64,000 nt of DNA from a bacterium. Lineage in GTDB: Bacteria; SAR324; XYD2-FULL-50-16. Below, piece by piece: positions 1,308 to 49,948 of the stretch (within the stretch, counting starts at the first letter, position 1; every line of letters begins with the position of its first letter). The notes below the pieces were generated by a model. The model was not told where the DNA came from and did no database searches. It was given only the letters and a program-made list of their open reading frames with translations. A program made the position numbers and the translations under genes. The DNA lies in assembly GCA_032250835.1 (NCBI GenBank), contig JAVVEA010000012.1, positions 32,001 to 96,000 of the forward strand. The letters run 5' to 3'.

Positions 1308-2065
1308 TCCAAATTGAAGGACTAAAAAAGCGCTACGGCTCTAAAGAAGTGCTCAAAGGCCTCGACCTGAACATCCCCGCCGGAGAGCGCCTTTCGATCA
1401 TCGGGCCTTCGGGCTCAGGCAAGTCCACCTTGCTGCGTGTGTTGATGGCTTTGGAGCCCTATCAGGAGGGTCAAGTGCGGGTCGATGGCGAATTGCTGCG
1501 CTTCCCTAAAGTACAGCCGAAGCTCCCCTTTTGGGACTCTAAGGACCTGCGCCGCTACCGCCGAAATCTGGGCATGGTGTTCCAGCATTTTAATCTCTTC
1601 AACCACATGACGGTCTTACGCAACCTAACCGAGGCGCCCTGCCGGGTTCTGGGCTTAAGCGCCACCGAGGCGCGCCAGCGGGCCGAAGAGTTGTTGGAGA
1701 TGGTGGGGTTGCAGGACTTTGCCCAGCGCTTTCCGGGCCAGCTTTCGGGCGGGCAAAAGCAACGGGTGGCGATCGCCCGTGCCTTGGCCATGCGCCCCAA
1801 GGTGATGCTTTTTGACGAAGTCACCTCCGCCTTGGACCCCGAACTAGTCGGTGAGGTCTTAGGCGTCATCCAGCATCTCGCCGAAGCCCACGAACTAACG
1901 ATCTTGATGGTCACCCACGAGATGAGCTTTGCCCGGCGCATCTCCGACCGGGTCCTATTTTTTGATCAGGGGTTAATTGTGGAGCAGGGCACCCCCGAGC
2001 AGATCTTCGACCACCCCCGCCATGAGCGCACCGCCCAGTTTCTTTCGGCGGTACATAGCCCCTAG
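1304..2065 (+). CDS. ehuA: Polar amino acid/ectoine ABC transporter ATP-binding protein EhuA
   Basis: Walker [10 protein letters not shown], signature [25 protein letters not shown] overlap with ehuD. Confidence 0.85.
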
Positions 2066-2514
2066 GTTTCTAAATAGACCACCAAGTCCACCAAGGTCAG
2101 TTCGCCGATCACTTTGCCTTGGGCGTCTAAGACCGGGACTTCCTTGACGTTGCTGTCGATCATGCGGCGCAGAAGGGCCCGCACCTCCTCTTCGGGCGTG
2201 CAAAACAGCGGGTGCTGGATCATCAATTCTTCGGCCCGCTCTCCGGTGATCAACGAAAGCAACCGGCGGCCATGGACCTGGGGCAAGTGGTCTTGGGCCA
2301 AAAGAAACCGGACCAAGTCCTTGACCGCTAGGGCTCCCTTGAGTCGGTTTTGTTCGTCGACTACATAAAACAACCGGTTGCAACGGTAGCGGTCTAAGGC
2401 CCGGACCCAATCGGCCCGTTCGGCCTGGGTCGGGAGGGTCGGGATTTCGCGGTGCCCGATGCGCTCCAGCAAATCGGACACGCTGCTACGTCGGTCCTTT
2501 TTACTCATCTTCAC
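2062..2514 (-). CDS. CBS domain pair protein
   Basis: [11 protein letters not shown] and [15 protein letters not shown]-type motifs; overlaps the 3' end of the antiporter gene. Confidence 0.8.
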
Positions 2515-3778
2515 CTCCCTTAGACCCTCTCTGGCCCGCTTCGCCAGCCAGATTCAACGCAAAGCGGATGAAGAAGGGGCTGATCAATTCGTTTAAGACC
2601 ACCGTAGCTAAAATACCGTTAACCAATAAAGAGCCCACGGGGCCCGCTGGCAAACTGGCTTTGGCCGAGAGCACTAAGCCCACGGCCACCCCCGCCTGGG
2701 GCGTCAGCCCCAAACCTAGATATTTGACCACCTGCGGCGGGCTTCCGCTAACCTTGGCGCCCAACCCGGCCCCCAATAACTTACCTAAAAAACGCGCCAG
2801 CAGGATCAATACCGCTAGGGCCCCGGCCTGAGGCAAAACACTCAAATCCAGATGGGCCCCGGCGAGCAGAAAAAACATCCCGAAGATCGGCTCTTCGATC
2901 TCTTCGACCACCGCAAAAAGGTCTTGGTGGTGCTGTAAGAAGTTAACCAAAACAAAGCCCAAGGTCATGTTGGCCAGCAGGGGCGAAGCCCCTAAACTAT
3001 GGGCCAATCCAGCACAGAGAAAGAGCGCGCCCCAGGCGACGCCAAAAAGCCCCAAACCGGGAGAAAAATGACGCGCCACCAGGGCCATAGCCCAACCAAG
3101 CACCCCGCCCAGCAGCAGGGCCAGACCAATTTCACGCCCAATAAACCCGAGTGAGGCACCCCAAGAAACCACCCCTACGCCCACCAAGGCCAAGACCCCC
3201 GTTTTGGCCAAGGCAAAGGCGGTGATGCCCAGGGCATCGTCGATAGCCACGACCCCCAACAACAATTGGGTCAAAGGGCCATCGGCACGGACCTCATGGA
3301 TCACCGCTAAAGTCGCCGCCGGGGCGGTAGAGACGCAGAGCGCTCCGATCATGATGGCCAGAGGCAATAATTCAGTGCGCCAGTCCAAAGAAGGATCGAC
3401 CACCTGACCCAACCCATAGGCGGCGACCACCGCCAAAAAAGGAAACAACATGGCCCCAAAGCCTTCGGCCAAAGTCACCGTGGCGATCTGAAGCCCTAGT
3501 TTTTTAAGCTGTTTCCAGCGCAACACCCCGCCGATGGAAAAGGCAATCGCCCCCAGGGCAATGTCCGTGATCAGGCCCAAACGCTCCTCGACCACCGTTG
3601 CCGAAAGCAGTCCGGTCACCGAAGGGCTAGCCAGCATCCCCACCACCAGATAACCGGTTACCTTAGGTGAATGGAGGCGGTGGGCCAAGAGCCCCGCCGC
3701 ATGGCTAAGCAGCAGCAACAGGCCGACAAAGACCAGCGGATGGGCCGATTGGAAGGGAACCAGAAAAGACGAAAACAT
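2501..3778 (-). CDS. Cation:proton antiporter (CPA2/Kef-like family)
   Basis: Highly hydrophobic; STAPAATLAV and GVVAIDDA motifs; FFLLAGAHL and GLGLTPQAGVAVGL. Confidence 0.85.
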   Translation of the reverse strand: MFSSFLVPFQSAHPLVFVGLLLLLSHAAGLLAHRLHSPKVTGYLVVGMLASPSVTGLLSATVVEERLGLITDIALGAIAFSIGGVLRWKQLKKLGLQIATVTLAEGFGAMLFPFLAVVAAYGLGQVVDPSLDWRTELLPLAIMIGALCVSTAPAATLAVIHEVRADGPLTQLLLGVVAIDDALGITAFALAKTGVLALVGVGVVSWGASLGFIGREIGLALLLGGVLGWAMALVARHFSPGLGLFGVAWGALFLCAGLAHSLGASPLLANMTLGFVLVNFLQHHQDLFAVVEEIEEPIFGMFFLLAGAHLDLSVLPQAGALAVLILLARFLGKLLGAGLGAKVSGSPPQVVKYLGLGLTPQAGVAVGLVLSAKASLPAGPVGSLLVNGILATVVLNELISPFFIRFALNLAGEAGQRGSKGGEDE

Positions 3779-3995
3779 AAAGATGTCCTGAAAGCCTGGG
3801 GCAAATGTTTGTTTTCATATTGTCATAAATTGCGCTAAATTGCAGTTAAATCCCGAATCAAGAAGGGATTTTTCTCAAATTGTTTAGTAAAATAGACTAC
3901 AGTCTTACCTACCACCCTGAAGGCCAACTAGTGAACTACTTTGCGAACGACCCATTGAAAGGGGGAAACATGGGCAGTCTTCCCAAACTATTTTA

Positions 3996-5210
3996 TTGGC
4001 TATCACCCTACTGAGCCTTTCGTTGCCTGCCTCGGCCATCGAACGACGACAGAATCAATTTTTAAACGAAGAAAGTTATATGTTTGTTCCGCTGCCCTAT
4101 TCGATTCCGGGCATCGGCCAAGGCGTCATGTTTACCGGGCTGGCGGGCAACGCGCTGGGGACCTATACGGACCTTTACCTGTTGGCTATCACCGGTGACG
4201 CCAGCGGACAAATCTTGGGCCTCGAAGACATCCATCTGGTGGATGAGACCTTAATTTTCAATTATTTTTATCAAGGCCTCAATAAAGCATCGGTGCAAAT
4301 GTACGAAGCAAGGGGGATGGATACCCAAAAGGACGACTTTCAATTCATCGTCTTAGATAAGGTCACCGGCACGGACACCAACCTATGGTTGACCCTTTGG
4401 GAGCGCCGGATTGAGGCCTATATTGGCCGCTGGAGTCAGGGCGTGGGGGTGACCGCTATCAACGATGCCGAAGGCAACCTGCTAGCCAGTTACGACGAGT
4501 CCTATACCTTCGAGAATCAAACCAACTATTATGGCTTGCGCCTGGACTATACCGACGACCGGCAAAACCCCTTCGCCGGAGTTCGCCTTGAGGCCCTACG
4601 CACCTCGAGCCCGCCGAGTAACGACTTACAGCCGGACTATTATGTAGTCACCAAGTCGGCCTCCGCTTACATCCCCATTGGCAAAGCGAGTACCTTCGCC
4701 TTCCACCACCGGGTTTCCGATGCCATCGTCAACCGCGAGGGCGAGACCGACCCCTTGGCCATTGCCGCGGAGCAGGGAGTGACCTGCAACGACGCAGATG
4801 CAGCCTGCTTAGCGGCCGTTGAGTCGCTAACGGCGACCACGGCGGCAGAACGTAAATACGGCACCGCCGAAGATCTGGGCGGTCAGAACCGCCTGCGGGC
4901 TTATCCCCAAAGCCGGTTTAAGGGTGCCCATTCGCTCTATCAGTCCGCTGAACTACGGCTCACCCTTTTTGACGAAGTGACCCCCTTTAACTTCTGGATC
5001 TGGAAAGACGTCAGTACCGGAATCCAACTGGCCCTCTTTTATGAACAAGGTGCCGCCAGCGACGACGCCAGCGAACTGACCTCCAAGCTACGTACCTCTA
5101 ACGGAGCCGGTATTCGGATGGTTTCTGGCTCGGGCTATGTCTACCGCTTCGACTTAGCCCAAGGCGACGAAGGCAGCCAGACGACCGTCATGTTCGCTTA
5201 CCCCTGGTAA
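3996..5210 (+). CDS. Omp85 (BamA/TamA-like) outer membrane beta-barrel without obvious POTRA domains; start uncertain
   Basis: Signal-peptide-like N-terminus; LGGQNRLRAYPQSRF resembles the Omp85 (V/L)RGY lid motif; C-terminal FAYPW beta-signal. Confidence 0.6.
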   Translation: MAITLLSLSLPASAIERRQNQFLNEESYMFVPLPYSIPGIGQGVMFTGLAGNALGTYTDLYLLAITGDASGQILGLEDIHLVDETLIFNYFYQGLNKASVQMYEARGMDTQKDDFQFIVLDKVTGTDTNLWLTLWERRIEAYIGRWSQGVGVTAINDAEGNLLASYDESYTFENQTNYYGLRLDYTDDRQNPFAGVRLEALRTSSPPSNDLQPDYYVVTKSASAYIPIGKASTFAFHHRVSDAIVNREGETDPLAIAAEQGVTCNDADAACLAAVESLTATTAAERKYGTAEDLGGQNRLRAYPQSRFKGAHSLYQSAELRLTLFDEVTPFNFWIWKDVSTGIQLALFYEQGAASDDASELTSKLRTSNGAGIRMVSGSGYVYRFDLAQGDEGSQTTVMFAYPW

Positions 5211-39324: not shown

Positions 39325-40016
39325 TGGACGTCGAGCGCTTCCCGCTGCAGCTGTTTGATCTCGACGACACCCTCCTGCATACCCGCGCTAGCTATTATGC
39401 AGCCCAAGAGTATGCCGTAGACGAACTGTGGGACCGTTTGCTGCTTCCCCAGCGCGAGCGCGCTTACCAAGAGATCCATTGGTTTTCCAAGCGGATTGGT
39501 TCGGTGGACCCACCAGCCTACATGAGCGCCTTCTTGCAAAGCTGGGGTATCCTCAACGACGCCAACTTACGCCTGCTGCTTGAATGTTACCGTGAATCTT
39601 ATTGGAGCGACATCAAGCTTTATGAAGGCGCTCTAGAATTTTTAGAGAAGCTCCAGACCCAGGGACGCCAGTTGGGGTTGGTCAGCAATGGCACCAGCAG
39701 CACCCAACACAAAAAGGTGATGCATACCGGGCTAGGCCGGTTTTTCCCCGCTGCGGCAAGGTTCATCTCCGGCGATTTCGAGCCGAGACACAAAAAACCC
39801 TCACCCTACATGATTTTGCGGGCTTTGGAGTACTTCGGCAGAGAGCCGAGTGAAACAATATATTATGGGAATACCCAGGATGACGTCCTGGCGGCAAACT
39901 TGGCCGGAGTGACCAGTTTGTTATTTGGTCCTGAAGAAACAGAAGAAACCGCACCGCAAGCGGCCAAACCGGTCTTGCGGCGCGGATCTTGGTTGGGGAT
40001 CGTAAAACCAGCCTGA
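39324..40016 (+). CDS. HAD-family hydrolase
   Basis: FDLDDTL, VSNG, KKPSP, GN...DVLAA. Confidence 0.85.
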   Translation: MDVERFPLQLFDLDDTLLHTRASYYAAQEYAVDELWDRLLLPQRERAYQEIHWFSKRIGSVDPPAYMSAFLQSWGILNDANLRLLLECYRESYWSDIKLYEGALEFLEKLQTQGRQLGLVSNGTSSTQHKKVMHTGLGRFFPAAARFISGDFEPRHKKPSPYMILRALEYFGREPSETIYYGNTQDDVLAANLAGVTSLLFGPEETEETAPQAAKPVLRRGSWLGIVKPA

Positions 40017-40051
40017 AGCACAGGGGGCGAACCCCTGCACCTCAATCGGCC

Positions 40052-41509
40052 TTACCTATCCATCAACAAAGAGAACACCTTCGAGGGTGAGCTATTCGCC
40101 TGCGACATCATTGCCGCAGCCGACTGCTTCATCAACTCGTTACGGGTATAATTGGCCATCTCCAAAGCGATGTCCGTATCCCGAATGGTTGATTCCGCAG
40201 CCACCATGTTCTCCTGGGTGGTCCGCAACGTCGCGATGTTGGTCGCCAGAGTATTCTTCTGGAACGAACCCAACCTTGAGCGCGTCTGGGACACGTCGTT
40301 AATGGCGGTGTCAATGATCTTCAGAGCGTCCTGTGCCCCTTGAGCCGTCCGGACATCGATGTCCGCAAGACTTTCAAAGGCACTTGAGTTCGCAATACCC
40401 CGGCCAACTTGGTTGGCCGACATGTTCTGAAGCGCAATCTCGACCGTTTGGCCCGCGTCCGGTCCGACCTGGAAGGTTAAGGCGTTTTGAGCCACCGTAA
40501 CCTTACCCACGTTCGTTCCTTCGGCCAGCGGCTGCACCCCTTCGGGCCGCCGGTACCGCACCGTCAAGTTGTCGGTCGAGGGGTTACCGACCAAACCGGT
40601 CATGGTATCCCCTTTTCCGAGCGTTGCCTCACCATTAATGGTTCCCATTAGGTCCGTACCCGAATTGGCGCTGCTTAGGCTACCGGCTTCTTGTGACAAG
40701 ACACCAGCGGTCGAAGAAGACACCTGGAAGGTGTACTGAGACCCATGTTGCTTATGAGCGATCCGGATCACACCCGAGTCATCACTCGTCACGTCTACCG
40801 CGAGACCCGACTTACGGGACACCTCGGCGAAGTTCTTGATCGCACTAGCCACCGTGTCCGTAGACTTGGTGGTGTAGGTGGCGGATTTACCGCCCTCTAC
40901 CAGCGTCAAGGTTTCCCCCGCTTCGACCATCTCTTTAGTCAGGGCCGTACTGCCCGACCAAGAGGCCGCGGAAGACTCTTGGGTAATGACTACGTCATAC
41001 CCGTCTTTCCCAGAAGACATGGCTTTGGTACCGGCTTCGACGAAGGACAAGCCCGCGCCGATTGAGGTACCCGAAACACCGTTTGAACCGTCCAGCAGCT
41101 TCTTAGAGCCGAATGACGTGGTTTGAGCGATCCGGTCAATGGCCGAAATCCCTCCGCTGATTTCCGTTTGGTCGGCCTCCAGCATAACCATATCGTTCGC
41201 GCCCTCGTTGGCCGCGTGGATGGACAATTGGCGCATGCCCACCAAAAGGTTGTTCACCTCTGTTAAAGCACCTTCAGCAGTTTGAACCATAGAAACCGAG
41301 GCTTCGGAGTTCTTCACAGCTTGCTCGATACTCGCGATTTGCGAGCGCATCTGTTCAGAAGCTACCAAAGACGCGGGAGCATCCCCTGCTCGGTTGATAC
41401 TCAAGCCCGACGAAAGTTTTTCAAGGGACTTTGAGACCCTATCCGAAGCTTGTGTCAGGTTCCTATGCGCGTTCAGACTGCTGGTATTATGGTTAATTCG
41501 CAAACTCAT
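40052..41509 (-). CDS. Flagellin, downstream paralog (here called fla2)
   Basis: MSLRINHN, LEKLSSGLSINRAGD, QTAEGALTE, FQVG, RSRLGSFQ, ESTIRDTD; SD AGGAGG. Confidence 0.95.
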   Translation of the reverse strand: MSLRINHNTSSLNAHRNLTQASDRVSKSLEKLSSGLSINRAGDAPASLVASEQMRSQIASIEQAVKNSEASVSMVQTAEGALTEVNNLLVGMRQLSIHAANEGANDMVMLEADQTEISGGISAIDRIAQTTSFGSKKLLDGSNGVSGTSIGAGLSFVEAGTKAMSSGKDGYDVVITQESSAASWSGSTALTKEMVEAGETLTLVEGGKSATYTTKSTDTVASAIKNFAEVSRKSGLAVDVTSDDSGVIRIAHKQHGSQYTFQVSSSTAGVLSQEAGSLSSANSGTDLMGTINGEATLGKGDTMTGLVGNPSTDNLTVRYRRPEGVQPLAEGTNVGKVTVAQNALTFQVGPDAGQTVEIALQNMSANQVGRGIANSSAFESLADIDVRTAQGAQDALKIIDTAINDVSQTRSRLGSFQKNTLATNIATLRTTQENMVAAESTIRDTDIALEMANYTRNELMKQSAAAMMSQANSSPSKVFSLLMDR

Positions 41510-41824
41510 ATTACCTCCTAATAGAGCGTATGCGGCTTGAGAGTATCATCGACCTCCGATGTCAATAAAACTCGAACCTTACCCTTTCGGGCAGGAAACG
41601 CTTGGGACCTGTAGGTCGCACAACCTGCGGGTACCAAAGCGGCTCCCCTGAACCACATTCCCCTTCCTAGTTTGGGGCTCAAGGCAACCGCTTTGCCGCG
41701 GTCACCCATACCTCGCCTGGAAAGGTGCTCTTAGACGATAAGTCTGCGATCCTGCCAATGATCGCAACCGATCCCCAATGGCCGGGGGGAGCAGCCCCCG
41801 GCTACGTTCATGCCGCTGTTAAGA

Positions 41825-43282
41825 TCAACCCAACAACTTCATGATCGAATTGGGCATATTGTTGGCGTGGCTGAGCATCGCCGTAGCCGACTCGACCATG
41901 ATCTGGTTTCTGGTGAAAGAAGCCATTTCCATAGCCATGTCGGTGTCGCGAATGGTCGACTCAGCCGCTACGAGATTCTCCGAAGCAATCCGCAGGTTCG
42001 ATAGATTGCTTTCCAGGGTGTTTTTCTGGAAGGCACCCAACTCACCACGGATGGACGTGATGTCGTTGATCGCTTGATCGATCAACCGCAACGAGTCCTG
42101 AGCCCCGTCGAAATTCCGTACGTCGATGTCCCGCAAGCTAGCAAAACCTGAATCGTTCTCAACCCCTTTGCCCAATGACTTAGAAGAGGTGTCAAACAAC
42201 GATACACTAGCGGTTTGGCCCTGGTTGCCCCCGATTTGGAAGGTCAACGAGTTGTTCGAAACCGCTACGGAGCCAATTTTAACGCCCCCTTCGGGGATGT
42301 CGCCATCGGTGCCGGCCCTACCCCAAAAGCCTACTTTTAGGCCTTCGACGTTTGCCGTACCACTGGAACCGGTAAGGACTTGTCCCTTACCCGAAGTGGT
42401 TTCTCCGTTGATCGATCCTTCAATGTCCTGACCATTGTCGATGGTCTGGACCGCCCCGCCTTCGTCCGAAAGCAGGCCAGAGGAAGTCGATGAGACTTGA
42501 AACTGTTGGCCGGAGCCATATTGTTTGTGGGTCACCACCAACTGGTTTTGTTCGTTTAGCGAAACTTCAACATCCAACCCTGAGTCTTTGACGGCGCTAG
42601 AAAGCCGTTGTACGGCCGTCTTCACGTTGTCGCTGCTCTCAGCTTTGAACCTTGCGATCTTCCCGCCCTCAATGATGGTAAACTCCTCGCCTGCGGCGAT
42701 GGCTTCTTCCGTTAGGGCTTGCTTGCCGACCACTTGGCTGCGGGTGGCGTTTTTGGTGACCACTACGTCGTAACCGTCGGCGTCTGAAGCTTGAGTCTTG
42801 ACGCTAGCGCCAAGAAATTCAACTCCATTACCGATGGCCACGCCGGTGGCACCATTACTTCCATCAAGCAACTTCCGTTTGCCGAACTGCGTCTGGGCAG
42901 CGATCCGATCTAAAGATTGAAGCGCGTTGGAAATCTCGAGTTGGTCCGCTTGCAGCATGACCTCGTCGTTCATCCCCTCGTTGGAAGCGTGAATAGACAA
43001 CTGCCGCATGGATACCAAGAGGCGGTTGACTTCGTTCAGCGCACCTTCGGTGGTCTGAATGACGCTGATAGCGTTCTCGTTGTTCGTTACGGCCTGGTTG
43101 ACCGAAGCGACCTGAGCACGCATCTGCTCGGAAATCACCAATTGCGCCGGGCCGTCACTGGCCCGGTTGATCTTCAATCCGCTGGAAAGCTTTTCCAGGG
43201 AGCCCCGAAGAGCCGTCTCGTTAGCGAGCAGGTTCCGGTGGGCGTTTAAGGCACTCTTGTTATGATTGATACGAACACTCAT
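41825..43282 (-). CDS. Flagellin, upstream paralog (here called fla1)
   Basis: MSVRINHN, LEKLSSGLKINRASD, QTTEGALNE, FQIG, RGELGAFQ, ESTIRDTDMA. Confidence 0.95.
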   Translation of the reverse strand: MSVRINHNKSALNAHRNLLANETALRGSLEKLSSGLKINRASDGPAQLVISEQMRAQVASVNQAVTNNENAISVIQTTEGALNEVNRLLVSMRQLSIHASNEGMNDEVMLQADQLEISNALQSLDRIAAQTQFGKRKLLDGSNGATGVAIGNGVEFLGASVKTQASDADGYDVVVTKNATRSQVVGKQALTEEAIAAGEEFTIIEGGKIARFKAESSDNVKTAVQRLSSAVKDSGLDVEVSLNEQNQLVVTHKQYGSGQQFQVSSTSSGLLSDEGGAVQTIDNGQDIEGSINGETTSGKGQVLTGSSGTANVEGLKVGFWGRAGTDGDIPEGGVKIGSVAVSNNSLTFQIGGNQGQTASVSLFDTSSKSLGKGVENDSGFASLRDIDVRNFDGAQDSLRLIDQAINDITSIRGELGAFQKNTLESNLSNLRIASENLVAAESTIRDTDMAMEMASFTRNQIMVESATAMLSHANNMPNSIMKLLG

Positions 43283-43287
43283 AACAT

Positions 43288-43421
43288 TCTCCTTGTGAGA
43301 TGGTTTAGCCCGAAATCCTTATCGGGCCGGTAAGCCAAGTCATGGCTACTTCGCAAAGCTCGGATCGGCAAAAAAGTTCGGTCGCCAACTCCTTTTGGCG
43401 GACAACCAAATCCTTTTGGTT
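43288..43421 (-). promoter_or_regulatory. Array of CsrA-type AGGA-in-loop hairpins in the fla1 leader
   Basis: Hairpins at 43308-43327, 43383-43400 and 43404-43421 each display AGGA in the loop on the minus strand; SD is CAAGGAG. Confidence 0.7.
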
Positions 43422-43618
43422 TCTCCAAGCGAAGCACCCTACGAAGTCCCCCTAGAGGGGCCTCCCAGGGCAGCTCCCATATCCAACCCAAGCCTAACTT
43501 CTCGGGATATGGCAACTGCCGGGCGTGGTTCACCTTGCGCACCTCACGCATTATCCATAGGCAATCTCCAATTCAGGTTTAAAATAACCCTCCGTTGGCC
43601 ACAGAGGGAGTTAGTTCC

Positions 43619-43646
43619 TTAACGGCTAAAGGCCGCTAAAACTTAA
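43619..43646 (-). promoter_or_regulatory. Sigma28 (FliA) promoter for fla1
   Basis: Minus strand TAAG-N15-GCCGTTAA versus consensus TAAA-N15-GCCGATAA. Confidence 0.75.
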
Positions 43647-43774
43647 ATACTCTTCGCCGCAAACAGGCCTTGGGCTTAGATTTAACCCCGTCCAGCCTAG
43701 TTGTAGCCCGATCAAAAAAACACAAAAAGGAGCTTCGAGCCAGGTCTTAGACCCGGACCCTTGGCCCCTGTGTT

Positions 43775-43966
43775 TCATGAGGCCGCATCCAAGGGCCCGC
43801 TTTCGTATTCGTCGATTTCGATAAACAACGGCGGATCTTCAGGCGCGTAAACCAGTTTCAATCCTGGCTGGATGCGCGTTAAGCTACGTTCGTCGAAGCA
43901 GATGTTGATCACCCGTTTCGCATAATTGGAGCTGTAGCGCTCCTTAGCAACTCGTTTGGCTTTCAT
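43775..43966 (-). CDS. Small hypothetical protein, 63 aa
   Basis: ATG preceded by AAAGGAGAAAAGGACC; fills the gap between fliS and the fla1 promoter in the operon orientation. Confidence 0.5.
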   Translation of the reverse strand: MKAKRVAKERYSSNYAKRVINICFDERSLTRIQPGLKLVYAPEDPPLFIEIDEYESGPLDAAS

Positions 43967-43987
43967 GGTCCTTTTCTCCTTTGATCA

Positions 43988-44003
43988 TGGCACAGCTTTC
44001 GCA
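43988..44003 (+). promoter_or_regulatory. Sigma54 (RpoN) -24/-12 promoter on the + strand with no downstream ORF
   Basis: TGGCAC-AGCTT-TCGCA, exact GG-N10-GC spacing. Confidence 0.6.
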
Positions 44004-44013
44004 TCTCCATAAT

Positions 44014-44150
44014 CGTCATGGTTAATTCGCAAACTCATATGCCGGATCCCCAAGGACCCCAAAAATTCGCGGTGCCGCACACGCCGCAGGGGAATCCAGA
44101 AGGATCCCGGATATGGGCAGAGTGATCCGACCAGACTCCTAATCAAAATC
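44014..44150 (+). ncRNA. Candidate trans-antisense sRNA against the fla2 translation start; ends approximate
   Basis: 44018-44040 is identical to 41489-41511 (23 of 23 nt); 44136-44143 is identical to 41515-41522; imperfect hairpin 44036-44115; sigma54 motif just upstream. Confidence 0.5.
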
Positions 44151-44255
44151 CCCTTGCCTTAAAATTTTGCCAAAAGTCCCCCGGGCCGCTTATCGTTTTT
44201 CGATGCCGCCTAGTTCTTTACCTATGGGGGCCAGTGCCTGGGCACCGGATGGGTC

Positions 44256-44693
44256 TTAACCTTCTACATTAACCGGCTTGACGGTACCGCGCATCTGCAC
44301 ATAATTGCTTTTGGTTTTGCGCTGTTCGATCACCGCACGCCAACCTTCGCGCAACTCGGTTAACAGAACCAAACACTCGTCGGTCAAGACCGGACTTTTT
44401 TGGATGTTCGCATCGATCAGCCGGTTGTAGATGTAGGTGTACAGCTTCTGAAGGTTAACACCGATCTCTCCGGTGCCTTCGGTATTCAAAGACCCCAACA
44501 ACTCGGCCACAATGTCCTTGGTCTTCACCAACGAGGTGTGGGCTCCTTCCAAGTCGTTTTCTTCGAGTTTGATCAAAGCTTTCTTTAAAAAGCGCACCGC
44601 GCCGTCGTACAACATCAAGATCAGGGTCGCCTGATCCTGGGTGTTTACGGCGGCCTTTTTGTAGGCCTGGCTGCCTTTGGCATAGGGGTTCAT
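44256..44693 (-). CDS. fliS: Flagellar export chaperone FliS
   Basis: AYKKAAVNT...LILMLYDGA, NLQKLYTY, LTELREGW. Confidence 0.95.
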   Translation of the reverse strand: MNPYAKGSQAYKKAAVNTQDQATLILMLYDGAVRFLKKALIKLEENDLEGAHTSLVKTKDIVAELLGSLNTEGTGEIGVNLQKLYTYIYNRLIDANIQKSPVLTDECLVLLTELREGWRAVIEQRKTKSNYVQMRGTVKPVNVEG

Positions 44694-44710
44694 GTTTCCT
44701 CCGAATTAAT

Positions 44711-47700
44711 CTACAGTTTTGCCAGTTCCTTACTCATGTAGCTTTGTTCAGCTTTTAGCTGGCCCATCTTCGAGTCAAGGCGGGCAAACTTTTCCACCAA
44801 CTTTTCGCGTTTGGCGGTCACGCGCTCTTCGAGGGTTTTCACCTCCGCTTCGTAGCCCTTGAGCTGTTCTTCAACGTTCTTGGTGTAAATCCCCAGGGCC
44901 CCGGTTTCGGCGTCCATTAGTCCGGTGATATACTCCATCACGCGGGTGCCCACCCCTTTAGTGAACACCATATTCGCTTCGGGCCCTTCGGCTAGTTGGG
45001 TGTCGGCCAGCGAGACAAATAGCTTCAACCCTTCAAAATCAGTCCCTTCGGGCCCGGATAAGATCTGACCCGAGCCGTCCATCTCGATGCCGTTGATGCT
45101 GCCCTGAACATTTTTACCCGCCGCCCCTTCGCCGCCCATCAAGAAATGCGGTTTGAGGTTGTCCACTTCCTTGGGCCGGACCTCGATGGCGCTTCTCGAA
45201 CCGGTCAGGTTCGAGCGGATCGTGATTTTGCCTTGGTCCTGAGTCACGGCTATGTTCATGCGCTTAAGCGCTTTATCTTCCAAAATCTTTTTCTGTAATT
45301 CCTTAGCCAGCATCTCGACGCTGTCATAGGTCTTCTTTTCTAACTCGATCGGTTCGGACTCGCGTCCGTTGACCTTTAAAAAGATCACGTTATTGGTGTC
45401 GTCGACCACCACGGGCTGCGTAAAGGTTTGGGTGCTATAATACCCTTTGCTCGCCGCTTGGGTGATGTCGATGGCAAAGCCGTCTGCACCGCTCAACTTG
45501 GTTTTCTCGGTAGACGAGAGATAACTGATCGCGCTGTTCTCGCTGGTGCCATTGCTGCGGAACAGGTTGGCTACCTTAGAGAGGTCGTCATTGACCGCTT
45601 GGTTCAGTTTGTCTTCGTCTACAATAATGGTCCCTTCACCACCAATTTTGAGGCCAATGGCCATCAGCAAGTTGGCGTCTTCGGGCAACCCGCTCACCGG
45701 GTTGATGAAGATCCGCGACATCTCTTGTTGGATCCGCGGAAGGTTCCGGTCGCCCTGCAACGGGGCCGCCTCATCCTTATCCTTGTCGTACTTGATCACC
45801 TCTCTAAAGAAGGTGAGCATTTCGTTGTACGAATCCACAAATTCTTTGACGCCGGCGATGGCCTTTTCGGTATCGCCTTTGATGCTGATGGTCACCGGCT
45901 TTTCGGAGGTGGCCAAAAGGTTCAACTTGACCCCATCAATCACGTCGTCCAGTTCGTTGGTGGCGCTGGTGATCAGCAAACCGCCGCCCAATTCGGTCGC
46001 CCCTAGCCGAACCTCAGCATCTTGGGGCGGTTGGATGACCGGGCTGAAGGTGCGGAAGGTGAAGCTATCGGTTTCAAAGATACTCCCTTCGCCCAACTGC
46101 AAGCTCAAGCCCGAGTCGAAGGCTAGGGCCGCTCCGGCTTGGTAGTGGTCGCCACCTACCTTCAAAACGCCCGAATTGCCTTCATTGTCTTCCCATTTCA
46201 TCTCCAAGCCCTTGGTGGTCCCGATGGTACCGGAGCCCAGGGCGGTGAAGGTATAGACCTTGGATTCATAGCCCTCAAAGTTACCTACGATCTGCTTTTC
46301 TACGTTGCTGACCCTAGGTCCTTTCGGAGCCGTCGAAGCCTTTGCGCCACCACCAAAACCGGTCGAGGCGGCATCGTCTTCTACCTCAGGGCCGATCCAA
46401 CTGCTCAAATTTTTAATCTGCCCACCTTCTACCTGATCCGACTCGGGCAACCACCAATAGTTGGCCGTCGATTCAGACTGGCATTCGAAGGTAGCATAAC
46501 TGCCTTCGTTTAGCAGACCGGGCTTCAACTCGATCTCTAGGCCTCGGCCCAAGCTCATTTTGGTGCCCGGTTGGTAACCGTCCCCGACGAAGATAGTGCC
46601 GGAGAAACCATTTTCACTGGTCACCTCAATCTTTAAATCACCTTGGCCGATCTGACCGGAGCCCACCACCTTCATGGTGAAGCGGTCGTCTTCTGCTCCG
46701 TCATATTGGCCGGTGACGATCGGTCCACCTTCGGTGGCCTGCTTGCCCCAACTGGCCGGTTGTTGGATCGCCGGGGCCCGCTCTTCATCAGACTTCCACC
46801 AATAGATTTCCGGTTCCTGTGGCTTAGCCTTGGCTTCGAAGCTGTCGTTAACGATCACTTCCCCATCGGTCATCACCAACTGGATCCCGTCGACTACCTC
46901 CACCGGCTCTCCGGGGGTGTAGTTAAAACTGCCCAAGTCCAGGTAGCCATGGCGTCCCTGGTTGTCTTCCCAGCGCACCCTTAAGGTTTCGCTAACCCCG
47001 ACCGCGCCGGTGTTGACCACCGTAAACTTCAGGTCTAAGGGTTCGGTGCCCGTATAGGTCCCGATCAATTCCGGGATCGCCGTCGAAGCGCCGGTTCCGG
47101 TCGCCTTGGAATCTGCTTTGTCTCCTGCCGCAGCAATCCCTTTCCACTTGCTGGGCTGGTTGTAATAGGGGTCGAAGGTCGGCGAGGGGATTCCCTCTTC
47201 GCCTTGCAGTTCGACCTGGGTAAAGATTTCCCCATCTTTGCCCGTCATCTTGCTGGTCAACACGATCTGATAGGGCGCTTCTTTGTTGCCCGTCTTGATG
47301 ATGTTGGCCTCTACCTCAGCGTCCAGCGCGTTGATCGCGTCGGCAAAGCCTTGCACTGTATTGTTGGTGTCATCGACCACAAAACTTTCGGAGGCATTTT
47401 CGCCCACCGTTAACGTAACCTTTCCTTTACCAATCTGGGCGTCCTTTTCGGCAAAGCCCTGGCTGGCAATCTGGTGGTTTAAGGCCAGCTTATCGACCAC
47501 CAAGGTATGTTTGCCCGGCTTCGCTCCACTGGTGGCGCTGGCGGCGACGATCTCGGGGTCCGAGCTATCGACCAGCTTGCCTTCCCACATGGACTTCTTC
47601 GAGAGCACCTCGGACTTATCCTTTACCTGCTCAATCAAAGCCTTGACCTGCTTCCAGGCCTCCAACTCGACGGTCTTCTCAGTGGCCCGGCCCTGGATCG

Positions 47701-47806
47701 GCTCGATCTTCTTTTTTTCGACCTCAACCAATTTTTCGATGATGTTCTTGACGTCCAAACCGGAGCCAAGCCCTTGCATCATATTGGGTGAAATTTCACC
47801 AGCCAT
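44711..47806 (-). CDS. fliD: Flagellar filament cap FliD, unusually long (about 1030 aa)
   Basis: GLGSGLDVKNIIEKLVEVEK N-terminus; QDA...TNELDDVIDGV, FVDSYN, PLQGD; C-terminal KFARLDS; ATG at 47806 preferred. Confidence 0.92.
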   Translation of the reverse strand: MAGEISPNMMQGLGSGLDVKNIIEKLVEVEKKKIEPIQGRATEKTVELEAWKQVKALIEQVKDKSEVLSKKSMWEGKLVDSSDPEIVAASATSGAKPGKHTLVVDKLALNHQIASQGFAEKDAQIGKGKVTLTVGENASESFVVDDTNNTVQGFADAINALDAEVEANIIKTGNKEAPYQIVLTSKMTGKDGEIFTQVELQGEEGIPSPTFDPYYNQPSKWKGIAAAGDKADSKATGTGASTAIPELIGTYTGTEPLDLKFTVVNTGAVGVSETLRVRWEDNQGRHGYLDLGSFNYTPGEPVEVVDGIQLVMTDGEVIVNDSFEAKAKPQEPEIYWWKSDEERAPAIQQPASWGKQATEGGPIVTGQYDGAEDDRFTMKVVGSGQIGQGDLKIEVTSENGFSGTIFVGDGYQPGTKMSLGRGLEIELKPGLLNEGSYATFECQSESTANYWWLPESDQVEGGQIKNLSSWIGPEVEDDAASTGFGGGAKASTAPKGPRVSNVEKQIVGNFEGYESKVYTFTALGSGTIGTTKGLEMKWEDNEGNSGVLKVGGDHYQAGAALAFDSGLSLQLGEGSIFETDSFTFRTFSPVIQPPQDAEVRLGATELGGGLLITSATNELDDVIDGVKLNLLATSEKPVTISIKGDTEKAIAGVKEFVDSYNEMLTFFREVIKYDKDKDEAAPLQGDRNLPRIQQEMSRIFINPVSGLPEDANLLMAIGLKIGGEGTIIVDEDKLNQAVNDDLSKVANLFRSNGTSENSAISYLSSTEKTKLSGADGFAIDITQAASKGYYSTQTFTQPVVVDDTNNVIFLKVNGRESEPIELEKKTYDSVEMLAKELQKKILEDKALKRMNIAVTQDQGKITIRSNLTGSRSAIEVRPKEVDNLKPHFLMGGEGAAGKNVQGSINGIEMDGSGQILSGPEGTDFEGLKLFVSLADTQLAEGPEANMVFTKGVGTRVMEYITGLMDAETGALGIYTKNVEEQLKGYEAEVKTLEERVTAKREKLVEKFARLDSKMGQLKAEQSYMSKELAKL

Positions 47807-48034
47807 ATTGAAACCTATCCTTGAGAAGGTCGGAACCGGCAAATAGTTCCGCAGTCTTTAACTAGAGACTCCGCTCGACCCAACGGATTAAACTCCGTCG
47901 TAGGGACCTCCTTTTATTGCTACCCGCCGTAATCAAAGGCGGACAGGTTCAGGAGCGGACCTGCCTTGCCATCGGGCAAGAGGTCCCTGAGGTTGATTGG
48001 GCCATCAAAGGCCCTAGAATCCCAAGGATAGGTT

Positions 48035-48051
48035 TACAATTCTTGTTCCAA
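48035..48051 (-). promoter_or_regulatory. Sigma54-like promoter upstream of fliD
   Basis: Minus strand TTGGAAC-AAGAA-TTGTA; correct spacing with GT instead of GC at -12. Confidence 0.45.
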
Positions 48052-48059
48052 CTTGCCTT

Positions 48060-48385
48060 TACACTCCTTCTTTCTTTTTCGCCCGCCTGCTTAAGCTCCG
48101 GCGTTGGGGCCTAAGAGGATCAAGGCGATTACCGTTTAGGGGTGGCCGCGAGGGCCACTGGCTCCTCTGGTGAGCCCGATCATACGGGCCAGACCACTCG
48201 CCTCAGGCGAAATGCTGGCCACCCCATTAAGTTCCCCCTTTTAAAGGGGCTAAAGATTTGGCCTCCTACAGGCTGATAGGCGCACACCCCAGCCTGCAGG
48301 AGCCGACCCGAGGGGGTCGGTGTCATGGTGCTTTCGCACCCAATCTAACGGGCGGAACCTAGCCCTTTGGCTTAAGTCCTTGCCT
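48060..48385 (-). ncRNA. Large structured non-coding RNA or leader domain
   Basis: Dense nested stems, GAAA tetraloop and G-U pair on the minus strand; starts just downstream of a sigma28 promoter; no minus-strand ORF of 60 aa or more. Confidence 0.45.
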
Positions 48386-48387
48386 CC

Positions 48388-48414
48388 TTATCGGCGGCTC
48401 CTTTTAGAACTTGA
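48388..48414 (-). promoter_or_regulatory. Sigma28 promoter (proximal) upstream of fliD
   Basis: Minus strand TCAA-N15-GCCGATAA, perfect -10 element. Confidence 0.8.
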
Positions 48415-48543
48415 GCCTTTTTTCTTAATTTTCACTCGAACCCGCTGGGGCCTGCGTCCTAAGATGATCCCTAAGATCCATAACATCTCATCCTCCGTTG
48501 GGAGTTCTTTTTCGATTTGGCGCCAAGGATTGCGCTTGCTTCC

Positions 48544-48570
48544 CTATCGGTTGCTCTGAGCTTTAACTTA
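48544..48570 (-). promoter_or_regulatory. Sigma28 promoter (distal) upstream of fliD
   Basis: Minus strand TAAG-N15-ACCGATAG with AT-rich upstream sequence. Confidence 0.6.
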
Positions 48571-48697
48571 ACTATATTTTTTATTTTTTAGTTACAGTTA
48601 GTTGGATTTGATTATTGAGCTTGGGCTTGCCAGAATGAAGCGGTTTTGATTTATATATGACTAACTTGATCAGTTTACTCATCTATAAAAGGGCGGT

Positions 48698-49948
48698 ATG
48701 GAACTTTGGTTGACTCTGCTGGCGGTGGCTCTGGTGATCGGTCTGTTTTTGGTGACCTCCTGGCGGCCAGACCTGATTTTGGGTTGCGCCATTGGCCTGT
48801 TGGTGCTGACCGGCACCTTGACGCCCGCTGAGGCCCTGAAGGGGTTTTCTAATCAGGCCGTGCTGACCATTGCCCTTTTGTATCTGGTGGTCGGTGGGTT
48901 GCAGCATAGCGGTGGCATGCTCTGGCTCTCGCGCCACCTGTTAGGCAGTCCGGCGAGTGAATGGCGGGGCCGGTTGCGGATGATCACCCCGGTGATCGGC
49001 CTGAGCGCCTTCATGAACAACACCCCGGTGGTGGCCTTGATGATCCCGGCGGTACAAAACTGGTGTAAGCGGTTGCAGTGGGACCCAGCTAGGTTTTTAT
49101 TGCCCCTCAGTTATGCCTCTATCTTAGGGGGAATCTGCAGCCTGATCGGAACCAGCACCAACCTGGTGGTTGCTGGGCTGGCGTTAGAGGAAGGTTTGAC
49201 CGAAATCGGCCTGTTTGACGTCACCCCGGTGGGCCTGCCCTGCGCGGCGGTCGGACTGGTCTTCTTGATTTTTTTGGGGCCCCGGTTGCTGCCGAAGCGG
49301 AACCTAACGCCGGAGCTACGCCCCATTTCTTGGCCCCAGGACCCCAAAGAACCGAATTTAAATTACCGGGGTGCCCTCGCCCTAGGTTTGTTGGCGGCGA
49401 TGGTATTGCTGGCCGCTACAGGGCTTTTGGGGATGTTTTATGCCGCTTTGGGCACCGCGTTGGCGATGCTGGTCCTGCGGTTTTTGAACTTCAAGGCAGC
49501 GGCCCGGTCGGTAGATTGGTCTGTTTTAATCGCTATCGCCCTCTCCTTTGGCCTAAGCGAAGCGATCAAAAAACATGGCTTAGACCGGATGGTGGCCCAA
49601 GGGCTGATGGACAGTGTGGGGCAGGACCCCTTCTGGGTGTTGGTGGTCTTTTTCTTGGCCACCTCCTTGTTGACTGAGTTGGTCACCAACAATGCCACCG
49701 CCGTGCTGATGTTCCCCATCGCCCTTTCGGCAGCGGCGCAATTGGGCGTTAGCCCCCTGCCCTTTATCTTTGCCGTGATGATCGCCGCCTCATCCAGCTT
49801 TTCTTCCCCCATGGGCTACCAAACCAACCTAATGGTCTACGGCCCCGGCGGCTACCGATTCTCCGACTATTTGCGGCTGGGGGTTCCGATGAATTTACTG
49901 ATCGGGGCCACGGCGTTGTGCCTCTTGCCCTGGCTCTATCCCTTCTAA
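48698..49948 (+). CDS. SLC13/CitMHS family permease lacking TrkA-C domains
   Basis: SAFMNNTPVV, LIGTSTNL, TELVTNNA, SPMGYQTNLMVYGPGGYRFSD. Confidence 0.88.
   Translation: MELWLTLLAVALVIGLFLVTSWRPDLILGCAIGLLVLTGTLTPAEALKGFSNQAVLTIALLYLVVGGLQHSGGMLWLSRHLLGSPASEWRGRLRMITPVIGLSAFMNNTPVVALMIPAVQNWCKRLQWDPARFLLPLSYASILGGICSLIGTSTNLVVAGLALEEGLTEIGLFDVTPVGLPCAAVGLVFLIFLGPRLLPKRNLTPELRPISWPQDPKEPNLNYRGALALGLLAAMVLLAATGLLGMFYAALGTALAMLVLRFLNFKAAARSVDWSVLIAIALSFGLSEAIKKHGLDRMVAQGLMDSVGQDPFWVLVVFFLATSLLTELVTNNATAVLMFPIALSAAAQLGVSPLPFIFAVMIAASSSFSSPMGYQTNLMVYGPGGYRFSDYLRLGVPMNLLIGATALCLLPWLYPF

Follow-up and report, generated by a model that had tools for sequence, protein, structure and literature searches.

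A candidate sigma-54-dependent small RNA carrying an inverted copy of a flagellin start in the filament locus of a SAR324 bacterium

The flagellar filament locus considered here occupies positions 40052–48570 of a stretch of 64 000 nucleotides (nt), hereafter the window, from the genome of a bacterium of the SAR324 phylum (3.66 Mb, 97% complete; assembly GCA_032250835.1, contig JAVVEA010000012.1, positions 32,001 to 96,000). The module encodes two flagellins (flaA and flaB), fliS, the filament cap gene fliD and a small conserved gene, orf63, in the order fliD–fliS–orf63–flaB–flaA on the minus strand. In the spacer between fliS and orf63, on the plus strand, a canonical sigma-54 promoter is followed by a reverse-complement copy of the flaA start. 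On balance, and from sequence evidence, we favour the reading that this promoter drives a small RNA (sRNA) that blocks flaA translation, and that this control is layered on ordinary CsrA–FliW regulation. The most interesting part of the locus is this candidate sRNA gene, which would be sigma-54-dependent and is family-restricted and apparently derived from its own target. The locus was compared with 12 related loci (labels such as L033, L034, L035, L037, L039 and L042). Feature coordinates were taken by hand from sequence rulers and scan outputs and may be in error by 1–2 bases.

The candidate sRNA gene and its proposed target consist of the following elements.

43988–44003, plus strand: canonical sigma-54 promoter, with GG at −24, GC at −12 and the exact 10-nt spacing (10 of 11 consensus positions)
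44017–44038, plus strand: 22-nt reverse complement of the flaA start codon and codons 2–7, the proposed sRNA seed
44042–44110, plus strand: strong hairpin 3′ of the seed, lacking a U-run in the source genome (predicted transcript folded with RNAfold)
41488–41509, minus strand: flaA start codon and first seven codons, the proposed target

Transcription from the sigma-54 promoter is predicted to start near 44014, and no open reading frame (ORF) of at least 70 amino acids (aa) lies within 350 nt downstream of the promoter. The copy begins 14 nt past the promoter, and the region is an exact 23-nt repeat, on the opposite strand, of 41489–41511; the antisense flagellin start reported in a first-pass annotation of this DNA is therewith confirmed. 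In all loci examined a strong hairpin lies 3′ of the seed. The candidate sRNA has no Rfam match at E values up to 5. Rfam gave no match at gathering score anywhere in the window, and at a loose E-value the interval 39900–48800 gave only four chance-level matches (E ≥ 1.2).

Promoter and copy occur together in 11/11 loci that carry orf63. The exact promoter–copy pattern is present in 12 of the 19 genomes of the family, in a single copy each, while a reversed control pattern occurs in none; a profile of the pair found full-length matches (41–57 bits, promoter included) in 14 of these 19, and the 69 genomes searched elsewhere in the phylum had none (88 genomes in total). Weaker, partial profile matches span the seed half only, and the two that were checked, both in the source genome, are flagellin starts read backwards. 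When the pattern was scanned across one genome for each of 185,579 species, 15 matches were returned, 11 of them in SAR324-type metagenome-assembled genomes. Two of the latter were tested (L058 and L060, which share an identical matched stretch), and both adjoin fliS; the other four fall in unrelated taxa, with no flagellar gene within the 8-kb locus, at about the number expected by chance. Within the aligned family sequences the GGCA and T-GCAT columns of the promoter are invariant (12/12) and the seed is invariant or nearly so. The promoter-to-seed distance is constant at 12–18 nt, and the spacer around the pair is too diverged for alignment.

The seed can pair with the flaA initiation region of the window over 23 contiguous nt (−40.4 kcal/mol, z = −7.1), while its duplex with flaB is poor (−18.6 kcal/mol). 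Across the related loci, duplexes with flaA-type initiation regions range from −27.9 to −40.4 kcal/mol (z from −5.7 to −8.6) in 10 of 11 genomes, the exception being L035, where flaB pairs better with the seed than flaA does. The first-pass annotation had proposed that an RNA of the sigma-54 phase dampens one flagellin; the idea fits the best-supported element of the locus, although the flagellin concerned is the one encoded at 40052–41509 and not, as it had supposed, that at 41825–43282. The copy tracks lineage-specific synonymous codons of the flagellin and in L037 matches it at 22/22 positions. In the source genome the flaA start is the sole initiation region with a long (23-nt) perfect match. 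A third flagellin, on contig 42, is identical to the copy at 19 of its first 22 nt and would form a duplex of −28.1 kcal/mol. That gene (477 aa, start at 2905 of contig 42) belongs to a second filament locus, at about 1611–4340 of the contig, which also carries a fliS paralogue (37% identical). Hfq was not found in the genome, a result in keeping with a long, near-perfect seed; the sigma-28 sRNAs of Escherichia coli are Hfq-dependent.

All the regulators called for are present. The first-pass annotation had named beforehand the lack of rpoN, fliA or csrA as counting against its scheme; csrA and fliW lie adjacent on contig 11, contig 6 carries rpoN and contig 38 carries fliA, and flgM and ten strong sigma-54 activators are also encoded. 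Sites equal in score to the sigma-54 promoter of the candidate sRNA precede nifH, a type III glutamine synthetase gene and a flgB-like rod gene, the last assigned from a below-cut-off Pfam match over the first 60 residues. Sigma-54 thus appears, as judged from these sites, to be used canonically and to reach the flagellum. The promoters before nifH and the glutamine synthetase gene (contig 38, 183386–184328, and contig 12, 19369–21638) are canonical, which suggests that this SAR324 relative fixes nitrogen. Sigma-28 is likewise used in the canonical way, with sites in the genome that are perfect or nearly so. Two near-perfect sigma-28 sites stand in tandem just upstream of flgM (contig 11, 283592–283672), with csrA and fliW about 4–5 kb downstream of them on the same strand (278348–283392), and a further tandem pair of perfect sigma-28 −35 boxes is found at the end of contig 7.

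The flagellin leaders carry sites of the kind bound by CsrA.

41546–41568, minus strand: GGA-loop hairpin in the flaA leader (CsrA BS1-like)
41514–41519, minus strand: flaA Shine–Dalgarno sequence with GGA
43307–43328, minus strand: GGA-loop hairpin in the flaB leader (CsrA BS1-like)
43289–43297, minus strand: flaB Shine–Dalgarno region with GGA

A GGA-loop hairpin is found in 17 of the 19 flagellin leaders of the 12 loci, as against 15% of 1500 control upstream windows at a stem of at least 5 (6.7% at a stem of at least 6), which bears out the CsrA-type hairpins of the first-pass annotation. The distance from hairpin to AUG is constant within each type, at 23–26 nt in flaB-type and 36–47 nt in flaA-type leaders; the stems vary between genera and covary, while the GGA of the loop is kept. 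An apparent −35 box before flaA was rejected, being the 5′ arm of its GGA hairpin. The leader of hag has a two-site CsrA layout. A GGA-loop hairpin, a GGA in the Shine–Dalgarno sequence and the presence of csrA and fliW together give the layout of the Hag–FliW–CsrA and FlaA–FliW–CsrA systems, with CsrA binding here being predicted. GGA density in the gaps between genes is 2.2–3.5 per 100 nt, about two-fold above the genome-wide 1.37, and beyond this enrichment nothing points to the titration of CsrA by GGA-rich RNAs that had also been proposed.

From these elements, from their conservation and covariation and from the presence of the factors we infer transcription of the RNA, its repressive action and its timing, in the following manner. 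On both flagellin mRNAs CsrA, released or held by FliW, would couple translation to flagellin export. The plus-strand sigma-54 promoter would drive a short non-coding RNA with the reverse complement of the flaA start at its 5′ end. While rod and hook genes are being transcribed by sigma-54, pairing of this RNA with the flaA initiation region would block binding of the 30S subunit and probably trigger decay of the flaA mRNA. FlaA, and less stringently the third flagellin encoded on contig 42, would then be made only once the sigma-54 phase ends.

Several observations weigh against this model. The seed in the window is not followed by a U-run terminator, leaving the 3′ end of the candidate RNA undefined in this genome. 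The copy is on average 19.2/22 identical to the flagellin of its own genome and 17.9/22 to those of other genomes, a small margin, and the related genomes in that comparison are not independent. Because the flagellin 5′ end is itself highly conserved, part of the conservation of the copy could come from repeated gene conversion. By duplex energy the flaA start ranks fourth among 378 genome sites. The top-ranked site is the locus of the candidate RNA itself, and two sites within coding sequences outrank flaA (−43.7 and −41.3 kcal/mol; contig 11, 5736–5815, and contig 15, 17274–17353, in a transaldolase-like ORF and a 2020-aa ORF); these stronger duplexes are probably due to chance. A GGA in a Shine–Dalgarno sequence is weakly diagnostic of CsrA control, since it is expected there anyway. 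No conserved canonical sigma-28 or sigma-54 promoter was seen next to the flagellin genes when alignments of the relatives were checked by eye. With neither flagellin's promoter found, the assumed sigma-28 timing of flaA is not established, and the earlier proposal that fla1 is switched on in the sigma-28 phase is not supported. Finally, a search for sequencing runs turned up no usable RNA data for this stretch; contigs from two rhizosphere runs labelled metatranscriptomic (but possibly DNA) match, at 90–99% identity, the flagellins, the junction of fliS and fliD and the flaB leader as far as 43597. They are short, come from relatives and leave 43748–44340 uncovered; their coverage weighs neither for nor against expression of the candidate sRNA.

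The undefined 3′ end bears directly on an alternative in which the promoter drives a long cis-antisense transcript into fliS and fliD, acting by transcriptional interference or RNase III cleavage, with the complementarity to flaA being secondary. In the window the first plus-strand hairpin with a T-run lies inside fliS (44380–44393), and any RNA from this promoter is by construction fully complementary to the fliS–orf63 spacer, the top duplex site. However, a strict hairpin and T-run does follow the seed on the plus strand in four of 11 loci, although not in the window, and would end the unit there at about 93–136 nt from the predicted start. Nor does antisense transcription explain why just the 22 nt that mirror a flagellin start are conserved when the rest of the spacer is not. 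We consider this alternative rather unlikely.

The strand itself can also be questioned. The 22-mer could act as sense RNA in the orf63 leader, either as a mimic of the flagellin initiation region that competes for a factor or as the beginning of a short leader peptide coupled to orf63, in which case the ‘promoter’ would be an RNA or operator element. The element always lies directly upstream of the orf63 Shine–Dalgarno sequence, and in the window the sense copy has an ATG opening a frame of 17 codons that ends about 20 nt before orf63. Against this, that start codon is lost (ATA) in two of 11 loci and is GTG in one, the invariant positions coincide precisely with those that define, at exact spacing, a sigma-54 promoter on the opposite strand, and in the four loci with a hairpin and T-run these face the opposite way. 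Action on the sense strand is therefore an improbable account of the element, and a sigma-54-driven RNA directed at flaA remains the reading we prefer.

Upstream of fliD a different kind of RNA-level control is suggested by an anti-Shine–Dalgarno sequence. It is listed here with the promoter-like motifs of that region and a weak one before flaB.

47811–47823, minus strand: fliD Shine–Dalgarno region, containing GGA
48023–48035, minus strand: long-range anti-Shine–Dalgarno sequence (anti-SD), a 13-nt perfect complement of the fliD Shine–Dalgarno region
48035–48050, minus strand: sigma-54-like box with GG and exact spacing, with TTGT or TTGA in place of TTGC at −12; kept in all family loci examined
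48206–48221: third sigma-54-like motif, matched in the window only and unconserved
48388–48414, minus strand: canonical sigma-28 promoter, some 580 nt 5′ of the fliD start codon (−10, 8/8; −35, 6/8; 11-nt spacer)
48543–48570, minus strand: weak sigma-28-like site
47833–47861, minus strand: conserved sigma-28-like box directly upstream of fliD, its −10 lacking the CGAT core (6/6 aligned loci)
43362–43369: weak sigma-28 −10 before flaB (6/8), unconserved

The anti-SD precedes the fliD ATG by 229 nt. A complement of 13 nt was reached by none of 200 shuffles for the window, L033 and L034, confirming the long-range anti-SD of the first-pass annotation; L039 keeps 11 nt of complementarity and L042 keeps 9 nt, and in the single-flagellin genera the pairing persists, as judged by eye, through G–U pairs and compensating changes in the two strands. 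The fliD Shine–Dalgarno sequence would be closed by this anti-SD, about 230 nt upstream, within the long leader transcribed from the distal sigma-28 promoter, a leader that is the most strongly folded part of the locus (minimum free energy z = −7.3). L033 and L034 also retain the sigma-28 site at 48388–48414, which ranks within the top twelve of the genome, where a loose threshold gives 140 sites as against 65–92 in shuffled sequence; sigma-28 sites were scored against a consensus of −35 and −10 boxes with a CGAT core and an 11-nt spacer.

Three sigma-28 and up to three sigma-54-like motifs had been noted across the locus. The canonical sigma-28 site 48388–48414 stands, the others being weak, unconserved or without CGAT; likewise the plus-strand sigma-54 promoter at 43988–44003 is canonical, while the box at 48035–48050 lacks the defining GC at −12 and the motif at 48206–48221 is not conserved. 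The former box abuts the anti-SD on its 5′ side. If it were a promoter, its transcripts would begin inside the anti-SD and escape it, a possibility that we regard as doubtful. The switch proposed earlier for fliD, in which a sigma-54 transcript lacks the anti-SD and a sigma-28 transcript contains it, depends on this same motif. By eye, a possible ORF of 32 aa with a hydrophobic start and a basic tail (48388–48486, minus strand) sits between two sigma-28-type sites, with its stop inside the −10 of the 48388–48414 site, and small ORFs resembling it are present at the corresponding position in L033 and L034.

The genes of the module, with a terminator-like hairpin near flaA, are the following.

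40052–41509, minus strand: flaA, flagellin of 485 aa (Pfam Flagellin_N and Flagellin_C)
40013–40045: terminator-like hairpin near flaA (terminator scan)
41825–43282, minus strand: flaB, flagellin of 485 aa (Pfam)
43775–43966, minus strand: orf63, conserved 63-aa gene with a good Shine–Dalgarno sequence (tblastn and alignments)
44256–44693, minus strand: fliS (Pfam FliS)
44711–47806, minus strand: fliD, filament cap, 1043 aa (Pfam FliD_N and FliD_C)

From alignment with relatives, fliD probably starts at the ATG at 47806 rather than at the TTG at 47842. The flagellins are about 50% identical to each other, and both paralogues are retained in six related loci, while five have a single flagellin of the flaA type. 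The order glmS–HAD–flaA–flaB–small gene–fliS–fliD is kept throughout the family.

Nearly every gap between these genes had been described as long and structured. Gap lengths are indeed alike in relatives, and the flaB–flaA gap (315 nt) and the region upstream of fliD (about 890 nt) are long; however, the fliD–fliS gap is just 17 nt, and the 973-nt ‘gap’ between fliS and flaB contains orf63, so that the real gaps are 289 and 492 nt. Minimum free energy z-scores were −3.7 for the flaB–flaA gap, −3.7 for the orf63–flaB gap and −1.6 and +0.3 for the two strands of the fliS–orf63 gap, as compared with −5.5, −3.5 and −0.6 for coding-sequence controls. Structured gaps were rejected as a specific signal, since apart from the fliD leader, which alone stands out, the values are no lower than those of the controls. 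Simple scans for sigma-70 promoters (six found, 4.4 expected) and terminators (10 found, 12.2 expected) were at chance level. What is kept in relatives, with compensating changes, are the CsrA-type sites, the antisense copy and the anti-SD.

Two features had escaped that annotation, the hairpin family upstream of the flagellins and orf63. All 19 flagellin genes of the 12 loci have a long irregular hairpin 110–250 nt upstream, its arms containing a common short conserved core with a G–G mismatch. Type A precedes flaA-type genes and type B flaB-type genes.

41636–41694, minus strand: hairpin type A, flanked by runs of A and of T, with the flaA ATG about 130 nt downstream
43469–43520, minus strand: hairpin type B, 187 nt upstream of the flaB ATG
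43544–43558, minus strand: mini-ORF of four codons 5′ of hairpin B (Shine–Dalgarno 43566–43569)
43580–43608, minus strand: terminator-like hairpin with a T-run (terminator scan)

RNAalifold predicts 19 pairs for type A from a 12-sequence alignment, six of them with compensatory changes. A covariance model of type A scores 58.6–73.1 bits on the sense strand as against 13.2–31.3 on the antisense strand, an excess that points to an RNA on the operon strand. A T-run of at least four follows in 9/12 sequences (the window has three), and 41698–41707 can pair instead with the 5′ arm of type A, an alternative seen by eye in about 10 of 11 cases. The T-run, the likeness to the rplC terminator and the competing upstream pairing would make type A, most economically, an intrinsic terminator or attenuator. 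The rplC terminator (contig 11, 139167–139209), which has the same arm motif as the flagellin hairpins and scores 32 bits, is the one other match to the type A model in the rest of the genome; this motif may be widespread among terminators of the genome. The type A model gave only two weak matches to type B, so that no single family model was achieved, and a simple hairpin-arm pattern searched genome-wide occurred at chance level (34 found, about 42 expected).

In front of type B, a Shine–Dalgarno sequence, an ATG and an in-frame stop after one to six codons were found by eye in all six two-flagellin loci. In four single-flagellin loci (L036, L038, L040 and L043) a B-like hairpin comes directly after the small gene and type A about 270 nt further on, with no gene between; the layout looks as if flaB had been deleted from an ancestral two-flagellin arrangement. 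The rhizosphere run contigs over 43597–43442 and 43023–43468 cover the flaB leader, hairpin B and the mini-ORF, while fliD is almost uncovered; if these contigs are RNA, transcription of flaB would begin 5′ of hairpin B.

The small gene orf63 was detected by tblastn in 10 of the 12 related loci, and its CFD and GLK motifs are invariant in the alignments. A profile search of 1.84 billion representative proteins returned 28 matches at E ≤ 0.001, of which 26 are 60–82 aa long. A hairpin with a T-run lies 3′ of the gene, at about 43714–43769. No match to orf63 was found in Pfam or NCBIfam, and the top ESM Atlas score, 0.78, is at chance level. Its AlphaFold model (predicted local distance difference test score 77.6) has the order strand–helix–helix–strand–strand and gave no Foldseek match in the PDB below E = 3.

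That all this is an ordinary CsrA–FliW filament operon, its conserved pieces no more than promoters, terminators and ribosome-binding sites and the flaA copy a non-regulatory rearrangement remnant kept similar by gene conversion, would suit the apparent deletion of flaB between two conserved hairpins in single-flagellin genomes, the resemblance of hairpin A to the plain rplC terminator and gap folding no lower than in coding controls, but is improbable, for a neutral remnant of 22 nt would not outlast genera whose FliS proteins are 53–67% identical and whose spacer is unalignable, nor would it stay 12–18 nt from a canonical sigma-54 promoter in 14 genomes.

A broader circuit can be drawn around the preferred reading of a flaA-directed sRNA. 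An inverted copy of the flaA start behind a sigma-54 promoter would have become a target-derived repressor RNA; its sense partner in the fliD–fliS–orf63 mRNA might serve as a sponge; the hairpins upstream of the flagellins, their competing pairings and the mini-ORF would be regulated attenuators; and together these would set the order and ratio of FlaB and FlaA in the filament, with the 63-aa protein as a lineage-specific player. Taken jointly, these parts form a scheme that we think unlikely to hold as a whole.

The first-pass annotation had regarded the locus as a candidate for an undescribed system. Each part has a known functional counterpart, however, in CsrA–FliW control of hag and flaA and in FlaX of Vibrio, and the locus is one in which known kinds of control are combined in a new form. 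Vibrio FlaX is an RNA of the RpoN phase that pairs with the mRNA of a sigma-28 flagellin and blocks 30S binding (PMC11879080; bioRxiv 10.64898/2026.08.28.747715). Like FlaX of V. cholerae and V. parahaemolyticus, the candidate would be a sigma-54-phase RNA that acts on the initiation region of a later flagellin and sets flagellin timing. FlaX arises by processing of a flagellin 3′ untranslated region (UTR), whereas the candidate would be transcribed from a sigma-54 promoter of its own; it sits in antisense orientation between fliS and a small gene, in a different phylum, and the copy of its target would let it pair with the start codon and the codons that follow. With its own promoter, another position and no Rfam match, the candidate is, on this sequence evidence, not a FlaX homologue; the FlaX sequence was not directly compared.

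The CsrA layer resembles the Hag/FlaA–FliW–CsrA partner switch described for Bacillus subtilis (PMC6529632) and Campylobacter jejuni (PMC4894983), in that csrA and fliW are adjacent and the predicted sites comprise a loop GGA and a Shine–Dalgarno GGA. It differs from what is described there in having two paralogous flagellins with different constant spacings and a GGA in the fliD Shine–Dalgarno sequence as well. In C. jejuni, FlmE (CJnc230) and FlmR (CJnc170), sRNAs of the RpoN/FliA tier, tune the flagellar hierarchy without Hfq; FlmE, a product of flgE mRNA processing, raises flagellin by repressing flgM and another regulator, and is not reported to pair with flagellin mRNA (PMC11187230). The E. 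coli sRNAs that act on flagellar mRNAs differ again, being sigma-28-dependent, UTR-derived and directed at other targets (PMC10578931). A literature search for RpoN-dependent sRNAs acting on flagellin mRNA and for SAR324 flagellar regulation, which covered articles without their supplementary files, returned these Vibrio, Campylobacter and E. coli systems and nothing on regulation in SAR324.

Even if the RNA proves not to be real, the locus is still a well-documented case of CsrA–FliW wiring outside the Bacillota, Campylobacterota and spirochaetes, and, in a group that is abundant worldwide but unstudied, the hairpin family and the 63-aa protein offer new ways into the control of the filament. 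If our reading is correct, an uncultured phylum would have invented independently the logic seen in Vibrio, in which an sRNA of the sigma-54 tier restrains a late flagellin. The seed duplicates its target's own first 22 nt, which would make the origin of the sRNA unusually clear, and the locus would be a clean example of the birth of a regulatory RNA. It would also suggest that RNA-level ordering of flagellin paralogues is widespread among bacteria that build sigma-54-dependent flagella without Hfq.

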